Positions 1-11,320 of a stretch of DNA of 64,000 nt are shown here, one piece after another (position 1 is the first letter of the stretch; each line of letters begins with the position of its first letter). Where the stretch lies: NCBI RefSeq assembly GCF_003334785.1, contig NZ_QOWV01000004.1. One strand, written 5' to 3'. The translations under genes and the position numbers were made by a program. Source of the DNA: Escherichia coli. GTDB taxonomy: Bacteria > Pseudomonadota > Gammaproteobacteria > Enterobacterales > Enterobacteriaceae. The notes under the pieces were generated by a model. That model saw only the letters and a program-made list of their open reading frames with translations, was not told the DNA's origin and ran no database searches.

Positions 1-621
1 TGGAACGCGGGCGGCGTGGAACTGTACCTGACCGGTGATGCCAACGACTATGTCGGTAAAGGCATGGCGGGCGGCTTAATCGCCATTCGTCCTCCGGTTG
101 GTTCCGCCTTCCGCAGCCATGAAGCAAGCATTATCGGCAACACCTGCCTGTATGGCGCGACCGGTGGTCGTCTGTATGCCGCAGGCCGCGCGGGTGAACG
201 TTTCGGCGTGCGTAACTCCGGTGCTATCACCGTGGTAGAAGGCATTGGCGACAACGGTTGTGAATATATGACGGGTGGTATCGTCTGCATTCTGGGTAAA
301 ACCGGCGTTAACTTCGGTGCGGGCATGACCGGCGGTTTCGCTTACGTTCTCGATGAAAGCGGCGATTTCCGCAAACGCGTTAACCCGGAACTGGTCGAGG
401 TCTTAAGCGTTGACGCTCTGGCGATCCATGAAGAGCATCTGCGTGGTCTTATCACCGAGCATGTGCAGCATACCGGCTCTCAGCGCGGTGAAGAGATTCT
501 GGCGAACTGGTCAACCTTCGCCACTAAATTTGCGCTGGTTAAACCGAAGTCCAGTGATGTAAAAGCACTGCTGGGTCACCGTAGTCGTAGCGCAGCTGAG
601 TTGCGCGTGCAGGCGCAGTAA
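1..621 (+). CDS. gltB: Glutamate synthase large subunit, C-terminal fragment (5' end outside window)
   Basis: Open frame from position 1 to stop at 621; GXGXG-rich C-terminal domain; followed 12 nt later by gltD. Confidence 0.9.
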
Positions 622-2052
<1,431 letters not shown>

Positions 2053-2067
2053 GCGAGGTAACAATGA

Positions 2068-2092
2068 ATTCGCCAGACTGTGTCTGGCGAAT
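2068..2092. repeat. Solo palindrome ATTCGCCAGAC-tgtg-TCTGGCGAAT, same family as the yhcG repeats
   Basis: Near-perfect inverted repeat read directly 15 nt after gltD stop; not followed by a T-run. Confidence 0.6.
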
Positions 2093-2611
2093 CAAATTAC
2101 TGACGAAGTGCGCGTTGTTTTCTGGCAAATGCGGCATGAGCGTTTGACCTTTCCTATAATAGGGATAATTTTCAATAAATTGTGCTTTGTTCACCAAGTC
2201 TGATGAGTGAAGCACATCAAGCAATTTCTCATTTACAATCCGTCTCAATTACTTGTTAACACCTCTGACAATACCGATTCTGCAAGCTATTCAGTCTTTT
2301 CATTCCATGTAAATTGTCTCGATATTAATATACAAAATATGAATATAAAAAACCAATATATTATCCTTAATTATCTATATATTTTCCTATTTTTCAGCGC
2401 AAACATTCATGTAATGAATAATTATCACCACAAACCACCTCACCAGCACCTTATTATTCACATGATCGTAACTATAAAATTCATTAAATAAATACATCCC
2501 AGCAAGTTGGCTATTTCTGAACGAGTTATTTATTTACATTCACAAACAGATATATATACTGCTTCAGCTTTTTATTTTAAAAAATAAATTTGTTATTAAG
2601 GATATGTTCAT

Positions 2612-3376
2612 ATGTTTTTCAAAAAGAACCTCACAACAGCTGCTATTTGTGCAGCACTTTCTGTTGCAGCATTCAGTGCCATGGCAACAGATTCAACTGA
2701 TACAGAATTAACTATCATCGGCGAGTATACCCCTGGTGCATGTACCCCAGTTGTTACGGGCGGCGGCATTGTTGACTATGGGAAACATCATAACAGTGCG
2801 CTGAATCCGACCGGTAAAAGTAATAAACTGGTTCAACTGGGCCGCAAAAACAGCACATTAAATATAACCTGCACAGCACCAACGCTAATTGCTGTAACCT
2901 CCAAGGATAACCGTCAGTCGACCATTGTAGCGTTAAACGACACATCCTATATTGAAAAAGCTTATGATACTCTCGTAGATATGAAGGGAACGAAAAACGC
3001 CTTTGGTTTAGGTTCTGCGCCTAATGGACAAAAAATTGGCGCTGCATCCATTGGTATTGACAGGTCTAATGGTGGGATTCACGCGGCGGACGATACAGGT
3101 GAAATTCCTGTCGACCTGATTCAAACTGACCACTGGTCAGCAGCGACCCCCACATGGAAAGCCTCATCTAATGGCGCATTCTGCTCGCTGACAAGTTGCT
3201 CAGCAATCGAGCGCGGTTATTCTGTTGCAAAAACAGGGGAACTGACACCTGTTGCCATTACAGCGGTCACCTTCCCGTTACTGATTGATGCTGCGGTAAA
3301 TGACAATACTATTCTTGGTTCTGATGAAACGATCAAACTGGATGGTAACGTCACTATCAGCGTTCAGTATTTATAA
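2612..3376 (+). CDS. gltF: Fimbrial-like secreted protein (DUF1120 type), first gene of yhc chaperone-usher cluster
   Basis: ATG with AAGGA SD; N-terminal signal peptide; C-terminal ...VTISVQYL resembling YhcF C-terminus; 500-bp AT-rich upstream region. Confidence 0.85.
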   Translation: MFFKKNLTTAAICAALSVAAFSAMATDSTDTELTIIGEYTPGACTPVVTGGGIVDYGKHHNSALNPTGKSNKLVQLGRKNSTLNITCTAPTLIAVTSKDNRQSTIVALNDTSYIEKAYDTLVDMKGTKNAFGLGSAPNGQKIGAASIGIDRSNGGIHAADDTGEIPVDLIQTDHWSAATPTWKASSNGAFCSLTSCSAIERGYSVAKTGELTPVAITAVTFPLLIDAAVNDNTILGSDETIKLDGNVTISVQYL

Positions 3377-3547
3377 GAACTTGTAATACAGTTTTTATTT
3401 TTACGCATTAACCAGTTAGCTATAACTCGGACAGATTATGCCCTATGACATGGTCTGTCTTAATCAATCTCATCGCAAACAGTGCATAACATATATTAAC
3501 AATATGTTTCTGCGTTATTTATCATTATTACAGGAGTTTTAATTTAA

Positions 3548-4222
3548 ATGCTCAGACACATTACATTCACTGTATTTATAACAACATCAATGAATACCTT
3601 AGCCACAGGGATGGTTCCTGAAACATCAGTATTGCTGGTTGATGAAAAGCGTGGTGAAGCTAGTATTAATATTAAGAATACAGATGATCATCCTTCATTG
3701 CTTTACACCACCATTGTTGATTTGCCTGAAAGCAATAAATCAATTCGTTTAATCCCGACTCAGCCCGTTATTCGTGTTGAAGCCGGTCAAGTACAACAGG
3801 TTCGATTTTTACTTCAGGCGACTGTTCCTCTGCAATCAGAAGAGCTGAAACGCGTAACGTTCGAAGGTATTCCACCAAAAGATGACAAGAGCAGCAGAGT
3901 TACTGTTTCAATTCGTCAGGATCTACCTGTACTGATCCACCCGGCTTCCCTGCCGGAAGAGCGAGAGACCTGGAAATTCCTGGAATGGCGTAAAAATGGC
4001 GACCAAATTGAGATTAGCAACCCCAGTAATTATGTCGTTCGTATGACCTTACAATTTAAAACGCTCCCTTCAGGAAAAACGGGGGCTATAAATAAGACCT
4101 ATTTTCTACCACACACCAGTACAACTACTGCATTAACAAACGCTACGGATACAAAAGTCGAGTTTTACCCAGCCAGCCGATATGGTTATCGCGGTAATAA
4201 ATATGTCACTGACTTAAAATAA
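3548..4222 (+). CDS. yhcA: Periplasmic fimbrial chaperone (PapD-like), 224 aa
   Basis: ORF with signal peptide; position between fimbrial subunit and usher. Confidence 0.85.
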   Translation: MLRHITFTVFITTSMNTLATGMVPETSVLLVDEKRGEASINIKNTDDHPSLLYTTIVDLPESNKSIRLIPTQPVIRVEAGQVQQVRFLLQATVPLQSEELKRVTFEGIPPKDDKSSRVTVSIRQDLPVLIHPASLPEERETWKFLEWRKNGDQIEISNPSNYVVRMTLQFKTLPSGKTGAINKTYFLPHTSTTTALTNATDTKVEFYPASRYGYRGNKYVTDLK

Positions 4223-4242
4223 CTTTGCCTGGAGCGACAAGG

Positions 4243-6624
4243 ATGTTAAAAAAAACGTTACTGGCCTACACCATTGGTTTTGCCTTTTCTCCCCCAGCCA
4301 ATGCAGATGGTATAGAGATTGCCGCTGTTGATTTTGATCGGGAAACATTAAAATCACTAGGTGTAGATCCTAATATATCGCATTATTTTTCCCGTTCAGC
4401 CCGTTTTTTGCCAGGTGAATATTCACTGATAGTATCAGTAAATGGCGAAAAAAAAGGCAACATTGCTACGCGCTTTGATGAAAATGGCGACATTTGTCTT
4501 GATCAGGCATTTCTGCAACAAGCCGGTTTAAAAATTCCTTCTGAAGAAAAAAATGGCTGTTACGACTATATATTGTCCTACCCGGGTACCACAATCACAC
4601 CATTACCTAACCAGGAAGCGTTAGATATTATCGTTTCACCACAGGCGATCATTCCCATAGGGTTGGATCTCACAAACGCAGCAACTGGTGGAACAGCTGC
4701 GCTGCTAAACTACTCTCTGATGAGCAGCCGTGCAGAATTTTCTAATGGGAGTTCGGACTACTCCCAGGCTGCACTTGAAGGCGGGATTAATATTAATGAC
4801 TGGATGTTACGCAGCCATCAGTTCCTTACACAAACAAATGGCACATTCAGTAACCAGAACTCGTCAACCTACCTTCAACGTACCTTTACAGATCTTAAAA
4901 CACTCATGCGAGCAGGTGAAGTTAACCTCAATAATAGCGTGTTGGAAGGAGCCAGTATTTACGGTATCGAAATCGCACCGGACAACGCATTGCAAACCAG
5001 CGGCAATGGTGTGCAAGTTACTGGTATAGCCAACACCTCTCAGGCTCGTGTCGAGATTCGTCAACAAGGAGTTTTAATTCATTCCATTCTGGTTCCTGCG
5101 GGCGCATTCACTATCCCTGATGTACCTGTTCGCAATGGTAATAGTGATCTTAATGTCACCGTTGTCGAAACAGACGGTAGTTCGCACAACTATATTGTTC
5201 CCTCCACCCTGTTTAATCAGCATGTAGAAAGCTTCCAGGGTTATCGCTTCGCGATAGGGCGGGTAGACGATGACTATGACGAATCACCTTGGGTAATTAG
5301 TGCATCGAGCGGATGGAATCTGACACGCTGGAGTGCAATGAACGGCGGCGTTATCGTAGCAGAAAATTATCAGGCGGCATCAATCCGGTCGAGTCTGGTT
5401 CCCCTGCCCGATTTAACAGTGAGCAGCCAAATTAGTACATCGCAGGATACGAAAGACTCACTGCAAGGACAGAAATATCGTCTTGACGCGAACTACAATC
5501 TCCCATTTTCACTTGGGCTAACAACCAGCCTCACTCGATCTGATCGCCATTATCGCGAACTGTCTGAAGCGATTGATGATGATTATACCGATCCGACTAA
5601 AAGCACTTATGCGCTTGGTTTAAACTGGTCTAACTCCATTCTGGGTGGTTTCAACATCAGTGGCTATAAAACATATAGTTACGACGGTGACAATGACTCA
5701 AGCAACCTTAATATTAACTGGAACAAAGCGTTCAAACACGCCACGGTTTCCGTCAACTGGCAGCATCAACTTAGTGCTTCAGAAAATAATGAAGACGATG
5801 GTGATCTGTTCTACGTCAACATCAGTATTCCATTTGGCAGATCAAACACCGCCACACTGTATACTCGCCATGACGATCATAAAACCCACTATGGTACTGG
5901 TGTCATGGGAGTCGTCTCAGATGAGATGTCCTACTATGTGAATGCTGAACGAGATCACGACGAACGTGAAACGAGCTTGAACGGCAGTATCAGTTCCAAT
6001 CTCCATTACACCCAAGTCAGCCTTGCCGCAGGAGCAAGCGGCAGTGATAGCCGTACTTACAACGGTACGATGTCAGGTGGTATTGCCGTACATGATCAGG
6101 GAGTGACCTTTTCACCGTGGACTATCAATGACACTTTCGCCATCGCAAAAATGGATAACAATATTGCAGGTGTCAGAATTACATCTCAGGCAGGCCCAGT
6201 ATGGACAGATTTTCGGGGTAATGCCGTCATTCCATCAATCCAGCCGTGGCGAACATCAGGAGTTGAGATCGATACCGCCAGCTTGCCAAAAAATGTCGAT
6301 ATCGGTAACGGCACAAAAATGATCAAACAAGGCCGTGGTGCAGTAGGGAAAGTCGGATTCAGTGCGATAACACAACGCCGTGCATTACTCAATATCACAC
6401 TTTCCGACGGCAAAAAACTGCCCAGAGGCGTTGCGATTGAAGATAGTGAAGGCAACTATCTGACAACATCAGTGGATGACGGTGTTGTATTCCTCAATAA
6501 CATCAAACCGGACATGGTGCTAGATATAAAAGATGAGCAGCAATCATGCCGTATTCACCTTACATTCCCAGAAGATGCACCAAAAGATGTGTTCTATGAG
6601 ACAGCAACAGGAGAGTGCCAATGA
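4243..6624 (+). CDS. yhcD: Outer-membrane fimbrial usher, about 793 aa
   Basis: Large ORF; start trimmed from TTG at 4225 to ATG at 4243 preceded by GGAG; usher-like size and composition. Confidence 0.85.
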   Translation: MLKKTLLAYTIGFAFSPPANADGIEIAAVDFDRETLKSLGVDPNISHYFSRSARFLPGEYSLIVSVNGEKKGNIATRFDENGDICLDQAFLQQAGLKIPSEEKNGCYDYILSYPGTTITPLPNQEALDIIVSPQAIIPIGLDLTNAATGGTAALLNYSLMSSRAEFSNGSSDYSQAALEGGININDWMLRSHQFLTQTNGTFSNQNSSTYLQRTFTDLKTLMRAGEVNLNNSVLEGASIYGIEIAPDNALQTSGNGVQVTGIANTSQARVEIRQQGVLIHSILVPAGAFTIPDVPVRNGNSDLNVTVVETDGSSHNYIVPSTLFNQHVESFQGYRFAIGRVDDDYDESPWVISASSGWNLTRWSAMNGGVIVAENYQAASIRSSLVPLPDLTVSSQISTSQDTKDSLQGQKYRLDANYNLPFSLGLTTSLTRSDRHYRELSEAIDDDYTDPTKSTYALGLNWSNSILGGFNISGYKTYSYDGDNDSSNLNINWNKAFKHATVSVNWQHQLSASENNEDDGDLFYVNISIPFGRSNTATLYTRHDDHKTHYGTGVMGVVSDEMSYYVNAERDHDERETSLNGSISSNLHYTQVSLAAGASGSDSRTYNGTMSGGIAVHDQGVTFSPWTINDTFAIAKMDNNIAGVRITSQAGPVWTDFRGNAVIPSIQPWRTSGVEIDTASLPKNVDIGNGTKMIKQGRGAVGKVGFSAITQRRALLNITLSDGKKLPRGVAIEDSEGNYLTTSVDDGVVFLNNIKPDMVLDIKDEQQSCRIHLTFPEDAPKDVFYETATGECQ

Positions 6625-7166
6625 AACGGATAATAACAGGATGCCTGCTGCTGAACTTCGCCATGGCCGCTCAGGCAGAGTGTAATATCTCCAGTAGCAT
6701 ACAAAATATCGACTATGGCAAACGAAGTGCTGCCATGCGCCAAGTTGACCGGGGTAAAACAACACAATTAGCAGACAGAACAATCACGCTGGTAATGCAA
6801 TGCGATCAGGACGCTCATATTCGTGTTCAGTTGAATACCGCTAATATTTCCAACAACGGATTTGGATTTGGCCCGAATGGTTCATTAAATCTGATCGCCA
6901 GCGATGCATTTTCAGGTAGTAACAATCTCGACCTGGCGTTAGCCAGTGGCAAAAATGACAATCCGGGCAGCACAGGAACAGCATCAATTAGTACTTCCCC
7001 CAATAATTGGCTGGTGTTTATGCAAAATGGTCAAGAAGTGGTAATTGATAGCGGTAAAAGCGTTAGCCTCACACTGACAATGGCTCCAGCTTTTAAGGAT
7101 GAAGGGGAACTAACCGACATGACAGATATTACAGGCAATCTGACGGTCCTGGTGGAGGCAAAATGA
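6621..7166 (+). CDS. yhcE: Fimbrial-like protein (DUF1120 type), uninterrupted here
   Basis: ATG at 6621 overlapping yhcD stop (ATGA); signal peptide MKRIITGCLLLNFAMAAQA; AGGAG SD. Confidence 0.75.
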   Translation: MKRIITGCLLLNFAMAAQAECNISSSIQNIDYGKRSAAMRQVDRGKTTQLADRTITLVMQCDQDAHIRVQLNTANISNNGFGFGPNGSLNLIASDAFSGSNNLDLALASGKNDNPGSTGTASISTSPNNWLVFMQNGQEVVIDSGKSVSLTLTMAPAFKDEGELTDMTDITGNLTVLVEAK

Positions 7167-7879
7167 ACAATGTAAAATTACTGATTGCCGGAAGTGCCTT
7201 TTTTGCCATGTCAGCGCAAGCCGCTGATAGAGTATCAATTGACGTTAAGGTGACTCTGGAAGCTGCAGCTTGTACTCCAATACTAAGCAACGGCGGAGTT
7301 GTTAACTTCGGTAGTCATTCAGTCAATAGACTTTCAACGCAGCACTACACACAGATTGGAACACGTAATATTAATATGACTATAACTTGCGAATCCGCTA
7401 CCGGCATTGCGATTACCGCTCGTGATACACGAATGGATAGTATGACCACCGGAAAAGATAGTGGGGGTCAGAGTGGTGTAAAATATACCTTAAATGGCGG
7501 AGGTTATATTAGCCAGACAACGCGCTTATTCGGCTTAGGGAAAACAAAAGATAATAAAAATATCGGTAGTTATGCCGTGTTAATTGATAGCAACAACATT
7601 AGTGCCAGCAATGGTAGCCAGACGTTAGCTGTATCAATAGCAGGTGCAGATGCCGTCATAACAGGGCAAAAAAGAGCATGGCAAACGCTCACCGCTTATC
7701 CGCTTGCAGTCGATCAAAGCTATTATTACACCTTTGTAAAACCAGGTGAAACAACCCCAACTCCTGTAACGAACGCCATTATACCGCTTCAGGTGAGCGC
7801 ATCTATCGCGAATGATTTAGGCGGTTCAGAAAAAATCGAACTTGATGGGAAAGCTGTGATAAGCGTAGTCTACTTGTGA
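7163..7879 (+). CDS. yhcF: Fimbrial-like protein (DUF1120 type), 238 aa
   Basis: ATGA overlap with yhcE; signal peptide; C-terminal ...VISVVYL shared with GltF. Confidence 0.8.
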   Translation: MNNVKLLIAGSAFFAMSAQAADRVSIDVKVTLEAAACTPILSNGGVVNFGSHSVNRLSTQHYTQIGTRNINMTITCESATGIAITARDTRMDSMTTGKDSGGQSGVKYTLNGGGYISQTTRLFGLGKTKDNKNIGSYAVLIDSNNISASNGSQTLAVSIAGADAVITGQKRAWQTLTAYPLAVDQSYYYTFVKPGETTPTPVTNAIIPLQVSASIANDLGGSEKIELDGKAVISVVYL

Positions 7880-8063
7880 TAACAATGCCGGACAGGAGTA
7901 CTATCAGGCATTCGTTTTATACGATCGGTTAATGTTTCAGGAAAGCTCTTCGCATATCTTGGGGAAAGTAAATGTAATACGCTGTTCTTAATTGTTCAGT
8001 GCTCACCCCCCAGAGTATAGCTCATTCCATTATTCAACTTAGCTCCATATAAAGGGACAGATA

Positions 8064-9191
8064 ATGGAATCGCTCTCAGAAGGAACCACAGCAGGCTACC
8101 AGCAAATCCACGACGGTATTATTCATCTGGTCGATAGCGCCCGGACGGAAACGGTACGTAGCGTTAACGCGTTAATGACCGCGACGTACCAGGAAATTGG
8201 CCGACGAATTGTCGAATTTGAACAAGGTGGCGAGGCCAGGGCTGCGTATGGTGCGCAGCTAATCAAGCGACTATCAAAGGATTTATGTCTAAGGTATAAG
8301 CGTGGGTTCTCTGCAAAAAACTTACGCCAAATGAGGCTTTTTTACCTCTTTTTTCAACATGTTGAAATTCGCCAGACAATGTCTGGCGAATTAACACCAT
8401 TGGGAATTCCGCAGACACCGTCTGCAGAATTCCCATCGGCAAAGATTTGGCAGACGCTGTCTGCCAAATCTTTCCCCTTGCCCAGGTCCACCTACGTCCG
8501 TTTACTTTCCGTTAAAAACGCTGACGCCCGCAGCTTTTATGAAAAAGAGACGCTCCGCTGTGGCTGGTCTGTTCGCCAGCTAGAGCGGCAAATTGCGACC
8601 CAGTTTTATGAGCGGACACTACTGTCACATGACAAATCAGCCATGCTGCAACAACACGCTCCTGCCGAGACGCATATTCTTCCGCAACAGGCGATACGCG
8701 ATCCCTTTGTGCTCGAATTTCTGGAATTGAAAGATGAATATTCAGAATCCGATTTTGAGGAGGCGCTGATCAACCACCTGATGGATTTCATGCTGGAACT
8801 TGGGGATGATTTTGCCTTTGTTGGTCGGCAGCGAAGGTTACGCATTGATGACAACTGGTTTCGTGTCGATCTGCTGTTTTTCCACCGCCGTTTACGCTGC
8901 CTGCTAATCGTCGATCTAAAAGTGGGCAAATTCAGCTATAGCGATGCCGGACAGATGAATATGTATCTCAACTACGCCAAAGAGCACTGGACGCTACCGG
9001 ATGAAAATCCGCCCATCGGTCTGGTTCTCTGTGCAGAGAAAGGAGCCGGAGAAGCGCATTATGCTCTGGCAGGTTTGCCTAACACCGTTCTGGCAAGCGA
9101 ATATAAGATGCAACTACCTGATGAGAAACGACTCGCAGATGAACTCGTTCGAACACAGGCGGTGCTAGAGGAAGGCTATAGACGCCGTTAA
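8064..9191 (+). CDS. yhcG: DUF1016 / PD-(D/E)XK nuclease-superfamily protein, 375 aa
   Basis: ORF 375 aa; C-terminal region has candidate D ... (I/V)DLK PD-(D/E)XK motif (RVDLLFF ... LIVDLKVGK); contains in-frame 39-bp repeats. Confidence 0.85.
   Translation: MESLSEGTTAGYQQIHDGIIHLVDSARTETVRSVNALMTATYQEIGRRIVEFEQGGEARAAYGAQLIKRLSKDLCLRYKRGFSAKNLRQMRLFYLFFQHVEIRQTMSGELTPLGIPQTPSAEFPSAKIWQTLSAKSFPLPRSTYVRLLSVKNADARSFYEKETLRCGWSVRQLERQIATQFYERTLLSHDKSAMLQQHAPAETHILPQQAIRDPFVLEFLELKDEYSESDFEEALINHLMDFMLELGDDFAFVGRQRRLRIDDNWFRVDLLFFHRRLRCLLIVDLKVGKFSYSDAGQMNMYLNYAKEHWTLPDENPPIGLVLCAEKGAGEAHYALAGLPNTVLASEYKMQLPDEKRLADELVRTQAVLEEGYRRR
8360..8480. repeat. 3x tandem 39-bp repeat, each unit carrying a 13-15 bp-arm palindrome (core CAGAC-N-GTCTG), in frame inside yhcG
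   Basis: CAGAC cores at 8373, 8412, 8451 (39-bp period); palindromes 8366-8392, 8402-8434, 8441-8473; encodes three 13-residue peptide repeats (x-I-x-Q-T-x-S...). Confidence 0.75.
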
Positions 9192-9204
9192 TTTCAGCGG
9201 TTTC

Positions 9205-9232
9205 GAATTCTGCAGACAGTGTCTGCAGAATC
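9205..9232. repeat. Solo palindrome GAATTCTGCAGAC-ag-tGTCTGCAGAAT, same family
   Basis: Inverted repeat read directly, 14 nt after yhcG stop. Confidence 0.6.
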
Positions 9233-9250
9233 TTTAAAACGAACTAAGTT

Positions 9251-10583
<1,333 letters not shown>

Positions 10584-10587
<4 letters not shown>

Positions 10588-11273
10588 AGCACCGCCTTTT
10601 TCATCGCTGTGTTGTACCACTGACAAATGTGCTCAAGACGCGTGATTGCAGAACCGACCGTCACCGCCCACGCGCCGTGGCGCATCGCATCCGCCGCCTG
10701 AGCAGGCGTGTTGTAACGCCCTTCGGCAATCACCCGACATCCGGCGTCGCTCAACGTTTTCACCAGCGCCAGATCCGGCTCTTCTGGCGTTTCAGGCGTG
10801 GTATAGCCAGAAAGCGTAGTGCCAATAATTTCGGCTCCCAGCTTTTGGCATGCCAGGCCGTCTTCCGGCGTTGAGCAGTCGGTCATCGCCAGTAAACCGT
10901 GATGGTGAATACGTGCCAGCAGCGTTTCAACAGGCACCGGACGCGGGCGGTCGGTGCCGTCAATGGCGATAATGTCCGCGCCCGCCTGCGCCAGCGCATC
11001 AACATCTTCAATATAGGCCGTGATGCGTACCGGAGAATCCTCCAGATCGCGTTTCACAATTCCAATAATCGGCACGCTCACCACCGCACGCGTGGCTTGC
11101 AGATTTGCCACACCTTCAATGCGAATGGCAACCGCGCCCGCCTGTTCTGCCGCTAATGCCATGGCGGCGACGATTTCGGGTTTATCGAGCGGGCTGTCCG
11201 GAACCGGCTGGCAGGAGACAATCAGGCCACCGTTAGCAGCGATTTTTTGATCCAGTTGTGCAAGTAACGACAT
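10584..11273 (-). CDS. nanE: N-acetylmannosamine-6-phosphate 2-epimerase, 229 aa
   Basis: Start trimmed to MSLLAQLD with AAGGGAAG SD; operon context. Confidence 0.9.
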
Positions 11274-11320
11274 ACATCTTCCCTTAGCGAAAGGCCCGGT
11301 ACATAGACCGGGCAACAGGA

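Follow-up and report, generated by a model that had tools for sequence, protein, structure and literature searches.

An undisrupted yhc locus of Escherichia coli: a probable fimbrial operon of the beta chaperone-usher clade on a low-GC islet, with a proposed assembly mechanism

In E. coli, the beta clade of chaperone-usher systems is represented by Yhc (PMC3559732), and the stj operon is the only beta-clade system of Salmonella enterica (PMC9238391). In the beta-clade literature, no surface structure was found demonstrated for any system (PMC5216030). Earlier reviews, to the extent that they are relayed in that paper, describe beta fimbriae as lacking tip subunits. Intact yhc loci without the insertion sequence of K-12 have been described in ETEC strains of phylogroup A (Del Canto et al. 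2017, PMC5216030). In the same work no function could be predicted for YhcE, and deletion of yhc in one ETEC strain left adherence to Caco-2 cells unchanged. Published work already covers the locus, its clade, its disruption by IS5 in K-12 and the fact that intact copies exist; the locus is an ordinary one, and the discovery value of a further copy is small. What we add to the published description of yhc is its delimitation as an accessory islet, the occurrence of its five-gene module in Klebsiella and Enterobacter, and an analysis of the folds and motifs of its proteins.

We analyzed a stretch of 64,000 nucleotides of E. coli DNA, referred to below as the window. The region described here is very probably the Yhc fimbrial operon of the classical chaperone-usher beta clade, undisrupted and carried on a 5.9-kb islet of low GC content (Table 1), for which we propose an assembly mechanism. 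The assignment to the beta clade is that of published work (PMC3559732, PMC5216030, PMC9238391), and YhcD in the window is identical to K-12 YhcD at all but one residue. Both the gene content and the alignment with K-12 agree with the initial annotation, which had named the region as a gltF-yhcADEF chaperone-usher operon. The coordinates that it gave to the five open reading frames are correct, and none of the five contains an internal stop. For yhcD we use the RefSeq ATG start, although the longest reading frame begins at a TTG at position 4225. The proposal that all five genes are translationally coupled holds in part. Four-nucleotide ATGA overlaps join yhcD to yhcE and yhcE to yhcF; however, a gap of 20 nucleotides separates yhcA from yhcD, and an AT-rich spacer of 171 nucleotides lies between gltF and yhcA.

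Table 1. Features of the yhc region, in coordinates of the window
Feature	Coordinates	Strand	Description
Accessory islet with the entire yhc cluster	2055..7934		Boundaries from a BLAST comparison of the window with an empty-site genome (L003); GC 0.431; presence/absence polymorphism
gltD-gltF spacer	2055..2611	+	Presumed regulatory region; GC 0.318
gltF	2612..3376	+	254 aa; secreted DUF1120 protein, candidate major fimbrial subunit; Pfam PF06551, E 1.8e-45
gltF-yhcA spacer	3377..3547	+	GC 0.30
yhcA	3548..4222	+	224 aa; PapD-like periplasmic chaperone; NCBIfam NF007392, 319.7 bits (cut-off 183)
yhcD	4243..6624	+	793 aa; outer-membrane usher; NCBIfam NF011832, 1271.6 bits (cut-off 723)
yhcE	6621..7166	+	181 aa; secreted, predicted pilin fold, candidate tip/initiator subunit; uninterrupted
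TTAG, unoccupied IS5 target site	6988..6991	+	K-12 junction comparison and annotation
yhcF	7163..7879	+	238 aa; secreted DUF1120 protein, candidate second polymerizable subunit

The corresponding locus of K-12 MG1655 (b3214-b3219) has the same gene order and is 99.97% identical to the window over 12 kb. Apart from IS5, this alignment contains three mismatches, of which one is synonymous in gltF and the others give YhcD N255 (S in K-12) and YhcG R103 (H in K-12). In MG1655 a 1195-bp IS5R copy lies within yhcE at NC_000913.3 3365556-3366750, flanked by duplicated TTAG. The window carries the empty site: alignment of both junctions shows a continuous sequence with a single TTAG. The disrupted K-12-type allele, in which IS5 occupies the TTAG that follows nucleotide 371 of yhcE, is absent from the window. 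The alignment with K-12 that had been suggested as a check confirms that the insertion is missing, and together with the K-12 annotation it bears out the earlier statement that yhcE is interrupted in K-12 and a continuous reading frame here.

A survey of 5,426 complete E. coli genomes found yhcE in 1,142, uninterrupted in 783 of these carriers and with the K-12 IS5 junction in 341. Among the matches listed, every example of the junction comes from a K-12-type or laboratory strain. Intactness, which the initial annotation had put forward as special, is instead the usual state among the non-laboratory carriers listed, and it had been published earlier (PMC5216030). We see no difference of substance from the phylogroup A ETEC loci of that study, which consist of the same five genes without the insertion sequence; their 717-bp form of yhcF is the form found in the window. 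Other interruptions of the cluster are an IS1 in strain 1283 and an ISSen4-type element in strain EC102.

About 79% of complete E. coli genomes lack the islet. Their empty site is clean, with approximately 53 bp in place of the islet, inside a 183-bp gltD-yhcG spacer. Its GC content is 0.431, compared with 0.565 in the left flank, 0.533 in the other flank and 0.505 in the whole window. The low GC content relative to the flanks and the presence/absence polymorphism are both as expected of an acquired islet. All E. coli copies of the cluster are at least 99% identical. We also considered a band of matches with 80-90% identity as possible divergent alleles of the operon and rejected it; the genomes concerned are without the islet, and their matches are confined to the gltD and yhcG flanks.

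An identical order of the five genes, with the same four-nucleotide overlaps, is present in Klebsiella oxytoca, Enterobacter hormaechei, E. albertii and E. ruysiae. Synonymous divergence between these taxa is large or saturated, and the reading frames are intact nonetheless. Wherever it could be estimated in the cross-taxon comparison, dN/dS was 0.05-0.22; with the intact reading frames, this points to purifying selection on the proteins over a long time. Because the E. coli copies are nearly identical, this signal is one between taxa, not within E. coli. These observations bear on the possibility that the operon is intact on paper yet functionally dead, a silenced remnant that forms no natural surface structure and is drifting to loss. 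Its absence from most E. coli genomes and the repeated hits by insertion sequences (IS5, IS1 and the ISSen4-type element) would fit such a state, as would low RNA counts in K-12 (PMC10294691) and the lack of an adhesion phenotype in the yhc knock-out (PMC5216030). However, the retention of all five reading frames in E. coli, E. ruysiae, E. albertii, Klebsiella and Enterobacter, the purifying selection and the large share of carriers with uninterrupted yhcE make a dead remnant unlikely.

The same comparisons concern the place of gltF. Historically it has been annotated as the third member of a gltBDF operon, with a role in nitrogen or glutamate-synthase regulation, in which case it would be a chance neighbor of yhcADEF. 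Membership in gltBDF is still stated in some papers (PMC8403718), and in Escherichia gltF does follow gltD in the same orientation. However, 559 AT-rich bases separate the two genes, and a strong hairpin directly follows the gltD stop (positions 2067-2095; dG -22.6 kcal/mol, z -4.9). Moreover, the many E. coli genomes that lack the islet have gltBD without gltF. The protein itself begins with a hydrophobic leader that resembles a signal peptide, and it shares its family with YhcF, for which a pilin fold is predicted. In Klebsiella and Enterobacter a gltF-like gene stands first in the five-gene module, which there is convergent with gltD, and gltF therefore belongs to the fimbrial module and not to gltBD. 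We consider the historical assignment highly improbable. GltF as a partner or regulator of gltBD was likewise rejected, as the two neither co-occur nor keep a common orientation across genomes.

The region at 2100-2611 had been described as an AT-rich promoter region. It is indeed AT-rich, but its role as a promoter is unproven: ten promoter-like matches were found in the gltD-gltF spacer region, compared with 14.8 expected from shuffled sequences. The best sigma-70-like match in this spacer agrees at 10 of 12 positions (2533-2560). The gltF-yhcA spacer contains a sigma-70-like match at 3496-3525 and, 3' of the gltF stop, a weak AT-rich hairpin with a T-run that is not significant (z -1.2); a terminator after this candidate major-subunit gene is only an idea. 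Consensus scans for promoters and terminators were at or below the expectation from shuffles, and we therefore assign no promoter. A search of positions 1500-8500 of the window against Rfam at a permissive threshold matched no RNA family. In MG1655, coordinate 3362763 (yhcA/yhcD) is listed as bound by H-NS, with low RNA counts (PMC10294691). This listing and the AT-rich DNA make silencing of the cluster by H-NS plausible in the present strain as well, where H-NS on the AT-rich DNA would hold expression low.

The chaperone and usher are readily recognized. YhcA is a PapD-like periplasmic chaperone whose sequence matches in the PDB are Caf1M (E 1.2e-10), DraB, CupB2, a SafB-type chaperone and PapD. 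YhcD is a full-length outer-membrane usher that covers positions 1-801 of the NF011832 profile and matches FimD (E 6.5e-32) and PapC in the PDB, and its orthologues in the Klebsiella and Enterobacter modules contain PapC_N, Usher and PapC_C domains.

The structural subunits are less typical. GltF, YhcE and YhcF had been described as three DUF1120 proteins, which is correct for GltF and YhcF (E 2.3e-47 for the latter with Pfam PF06551), but the match of YhcE to this profile is not significant (E 0.11, 13.1 bits). Profile-profile comparison with hhalign does relate the Cys-Cys region of YhcE to DUF1120 (probability 89.5%, E 2e-6), a distant relationship in which Cys21 of YhcE aligns with Cys37 of YhcF. 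In monomer structure predictions the best matches of both YhcF and YhcE are chaperone-usher pilins, with the YhcE model being a confident pilin fold closest to the pilin domain of FimH; the predicted models thus have the Ig-like fold of pilins. Sequence searches of the PDB with YhcF and YhcE gave no meaningful match, so the fold relationship is visible only at the level of structure. A search of GltF, YhcE and YhcF with PADLOC gave no match to a defence family, and a full-text literature search on DUF1120, which comprises at least 1,415 clusters at 50% identity, found nothing relevant.

Conserved sequence features of the family also resemble those of pilins. In an alignment of 135 DUF1120 sequences, positions 24, 26, 28 and 32 (YhcF numbering) are 82-100% hydrophobic, position 30 is Gly in 123 sequences, and Cys37, Cys76, Gly229 and the penultimate Tyr237 are invariant. 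The N-terminal extension of GltF (...ELTIIGEY...) has the conserved Gly of the family, while that of YhcF (RVSIDVKVTLE) has alternating hydrophobic residues with Val in its place. This putative donor-strand segment is unstructured in the YhcF model. The label "non-pilin-like" that had been applied to the subunits is contradicted by the pilin matches of the YhcF and YhcE models and, in GltF and YhcF, by the donor-strand pattern, the Cys pair and the C-terminal Gly...Tyr motif. YhcE differs from the other two: members of its family have 20 residues before the first Cys, compared with a DUF1120 median of 38, and its C-terminus has no penultimate Tyr. An N-terminal donor strand is therefore recognizable in GltF and YhcF and not in YhcE.

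From the gene content, predicted folds and motifs we infer that Yhc may assemble a fibre, as follows. All three structural proteins would be exported by signal peptides and captured in the periplasm by YhcA, which would complete their incomplete Ig-like pilin fold. YhcD would then polymerize the subunits at the outer membrane by donor-strand exchange. GltF and YhcF would polymerize via an N-terminal extension of about 16 residues with alternating hydrophobic side chains. GltF is the likely major subunit, given that its gene comes first in the module in all taxa examined and is followed by a spacer, and that its extension carries the conserved Gly. YhcE, which is predicted to have a pilin fold and has no N-terminal extension, is probably the tip or initiator subunit; it would accept a donor strand and give none, and could hence occupy only the distal end.

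It is also conceivable, if rather improbable, that the system assembles with YhcE in another capacity: as a periplasmic accessory or regulatory factor, as a terminator or anchor, or beside an afimbrial, capsule-like polymer of GltF and/or YhcF that has no defined tip. One review, as relayed in PMC5216030, suggested that beta-clade products are afimbrial or thin fibres, on the ground that no tip subunit had been recognized. The closest solved relative of YhcA by sequence, Caf1M, comes from a capsule-like polymer system, and the C-terminal Tyr motif present in GltF and YhcF is missing from YhcE. However, a role other than at the tip accords poorly with the confident pilin-fold model of YhcE and with a Cys pair homologous to that of DUF1120. 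The N-terminal extension is consistently missing, and in the taxa examined yhcE always overlaps both the usher gene and yhcF. In donor-strand exchange as established for Fim, Pap and Saf, the donor strand is retained by terminators like PapH, so a subunit that has none cannot be proximal.

A position of YhcE at the tip leads to a broader proposal, to which we give even chances: that DUF1120 is a large, unrecognized family of enlarged chaperone-usher pilins, and that the YhcE family is a dedicated beta-clade tip, encoded directly after the usher, that has lost its donor strand. If this is true, IS5 inactivates the K-12 system by removing the initiator of assembly. The insertion would cut YhcE after approximately residue 124, with loss of the C-terminal strands and thereby of the initiator, and polar effects on yhcF are probable. 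The model of polymerizing GltF and YhcF with a donor-strand-less YhcE at the tip is concrete and testable, and supersedes both "function unclear" for YhcE and the bare label DUF1120. A strain with an intact copy, three SNPs and IS5 away from K-12 over 12 kb, lends itself to expression work on a clade with no demonstrated surface structure.

Yhc can also be compared with other chaperone-usher systems. YhcD passes the cut-off of the usher subfamily model NF011832/PRK15304, to which the Salmonella Stj usher belongs. GltF and YhcF match PRK15302/15303 and YhcE matches PRK15301, which are presumably the neighboring stj proteins. These subunit matches are far below the equivalog cut-offs (55-107 compared with 226-337 bits), as expected of distant relatives. 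SafD, AggB and SefD, which are single-domain tip or "invasin" subunits, are not known to carry a donor strand; they have no detectable sequence relationship to YhcE. Unlike the subunits of type 1 and P pili, those of Yhc do not match the classical fimbrial Pfam family, with DUF1120 alone matched, and GltF and YhcF have about 70 additional residues. YhcE is a single pilin domain without a lectin domain, whereas FimH and PapG have two domains. In other respects Yhc resembles type 1 and P pili: it has a PapD-like chaperone, a FimD/PapC-like usher and subunits of the same predicted fold, and its DUF1120 family shares with the Fim and Pap subunits an N-terminal extension of alternating hydrophobic residues with a conserved Gly, a Cys pair and a penultimate Tyr.

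We identified the gltF-yhcADEF chaperone-usher operon as five open and complete genes at the place assigned to them in the initial annotation, within the order gltB'-gltD-gltF-yhcA-yhcD-yhcE-yhcF-yhcG-nanQ-nanK (window 1-12000). The feature is real, its location is right and its interpretation was mostly right. All five genes had been described as translationally coupled, and ATGA overlaps are indeed found at yhcD/yhcE and yhcE/yhcF. However, the description is wrong for the first two junctions, because gltF and yhcA are separated by 171 nucleotides (3377-3547, GC 0.30) and yhcA and yhcD by 20. The longest yhcD reading frame begins at a TTG (4225) three bases 3' of the yhcA stop, whereas RefSeq starts the gene at the ATG at 4243, preceded by a GGAG in a better position; either may be the true start.

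Genes of the yhc cluster and the adjoining yhcG
Gene	Window coordinates	Strand	Length
gltF	2612-3376	+	254 aa
yhcA	3548-4222	+	224 aa
yhcD	4243-6624	+	793 aa
yhcE	6621-7166	+	181 aa
yhcF	7163-7879	+	238 aa
yhcG	8064-9191	+	

The interruption of K-12 yhcE by IS5 had been stated correctly: the MG1655 annotation shows a yhcE pseudogene split in two by IS5R (3365556-3366750). Alignment to K-12 extends on both sides of the element, with only three mismatches over 12 kb, and shows the window to be an empty site, with a single TTAG at 6988-6991 where K-12 has TTAG-IS5-TTAG. The element follows nucleotide 371 of K-12 yhcE (about codon 124) and thus costs the protein its C-terminal third, which comprises three strands in the predicted structure.

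The integrity of yhcE is true of this window but already known, and genome counts together with published surveys show that an uninterrupted gene is the usual state. The gene is present in 1,142 of 5,426 complete E. coli genomes, every copy at 99% identity or more, and is uninterrupted in 783 of these carriers. The exact K-12 junction occurs in 341 of the complete genomes, and among the matches listed all 40 are K-12-type or laboratory strains (MG1655, DH5alpha, C600, J53, HB101 and others). Different insertions are found in strain 1283 (IS1 in yhcE) and EC102 (an ISSen4-type element). Intact yhc loci without this element were reported earlier from phylogroup A ETEC, in a study that also noted 353 database matches to the intact YhcE protein (PMC5216030). 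Yhc was assigned to the beta clade by Wurpel et al., who described it as sporadic (PMC3559732).

The yhc genes form an accessory islet. A 6.1-kb query aligns to most E. coli at its two ends only; in FDAARGOS_1059 and O157:H7 gltD is followed 183 bp on by yhcG, and in strain C25 directly by nanQ. Alignment with an empty site places the limits at about 2055-7934, and GC is 0.431 within them, below the flanking values of 0.565 and 0.533. The same five genes, with position and orientation unchanged, are present in E. albertii and E. ruysiae. Klebsiella oxytoca and Enterobacter hormaechei also have this module of DUF1120, chaperone, usher, 176-aa protein and DUF1120 genes, with the 4-nt overlaps kept, but in the interval from sspB to gltD and in convergent orientation to gltD. 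This layout identifies gltF as the first gene of the fimbrial module and no functional partner of gltBD. In the E. hormaechei version (2710-4246 of that locus) a tandem pair of DUF1120 genes (246 and 248 aa), the extra one in front, takes the place of the single gene before the chaperone.

The neighboring yhcG encodes a PDDEXK nuclease (DUF1016) with a full-length match to PDC-S02, a candidate anti-phage defence family in PADLOC (E 2.8e-131). The gene itself varies in occurrence, being missing from strain C25 and from the E. albertii locus, and islet-bearing and islet-free strains share just 89% identity in its 5' flank.

All five reading frames are intact in E. albertii and E. ruysiae, with dN/dS of 0.05-0.22 wherever dS was estimable, and the Yhc proteins are under purifying selection. 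Synonymous divergence ranges from 0.6 to saturation, well above the adjoining gltD (0.28-0.36) for every operon gene; the alleles predate the species or moved between species. Divergence is also mosaic, with yhcE and yhcF much nearer E. ruysiae (dS about 0.6) and gltF, yhcA and yhcD nearer E. albertii, which together with the high dS suggests old alleles and recombination within the operon.

The gltD-gltF spacer (2055-2611) has a GC content of 0.318, versus 0.505 for the whole window. Silencing by H-NS fits this AT-rich composition and a published table in which MG1655 coordinate 3362763 (yhcA/yhcD) is flagged as bound by H-NS and has low RNA counts (PMC10294691). No specific promoter was found, consensus matches being at chance level. 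A strong hairpin at 2067-2095 (+), beginning 15 nucleotides 3' of the gltD stop and just within the islet boundary, has a perfect 10-bp stem (TTCGCCAGAC-TGT-GTCTGGCGAA; dG -22.6 kcal/mol, z -4.9) and no clear T-run; no Rfam family matched in the region searched. A similar palindrome gave a short BLAST match within yhcG of FDAARGOS_1059 (3039-3067 of that locus). In a laboratory-evolution study, all sequenced clones resistant to a peptide-PNA conjugate were reported to carry IS5 in the gltF-yhcA spacer, and neither flanking gene was linked to a phenotype (PMC8403718). These insertions, the K-12 IS5, and IS1 and ISSen4 elsewhere suggest that the AT-rich islet attracts insertion sequences.

YhcA and YhcD score above curated NCBIfam cut-offs as fimbrial chaperone and usher, and match the sequences of solved Caf1M/PapD and FimD/PapC, respectively. 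Of the three proteins assigned to DUF1120, GltF and YhcF match the Pfam family and YhcE does not (E 0.11). The family is large, with at least 1,415 cluster representatives that a profile search relates to GltF and YhcF. In an alignment of 135 sequences (YhcF numbering), two cysteines 39 apart, Gly135, Gly229 and the penultimate Tyr237 are invariant. Between signal peptide and first cysteine, hydrophobic residues alternate at 24, 26, 28 and 32, with Gly30 in 123 of 135 sequences. In Fim and Pap subunits, such a pattern marks the donor strand and the pilin C-terminal strand. The description of GltF, YhcE and YhcF as non-pilin-like is unsupported; these proteins are divergent pilins. In the YhcE family just 20 residues precede the first cysteine (40 of 41 sequences), compared with a DUF1120 median of 38, and YhcE therefore has no N-terminal extension after its signal peptide.

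We propose that Yhc would operate as a classical donor-strand-exchange system, in which YhcA may chaperone the subunits and YhcD assemble them. GltF and YhcF could be both strand donors and acceptors. YhcE would only accept a strand and hence take a distal position; monomer predictions and motifs make it a likely tip or initiator subunit. The Yhc locus described here is a known one in its common natural state, and its remaining value is a testable model for YhcE and the DUF1120 family. The suggested tip role is a small new step, since published accounts give YhcE no known function and hold that beta-clade systems have no tip subunits (PMC5216030).
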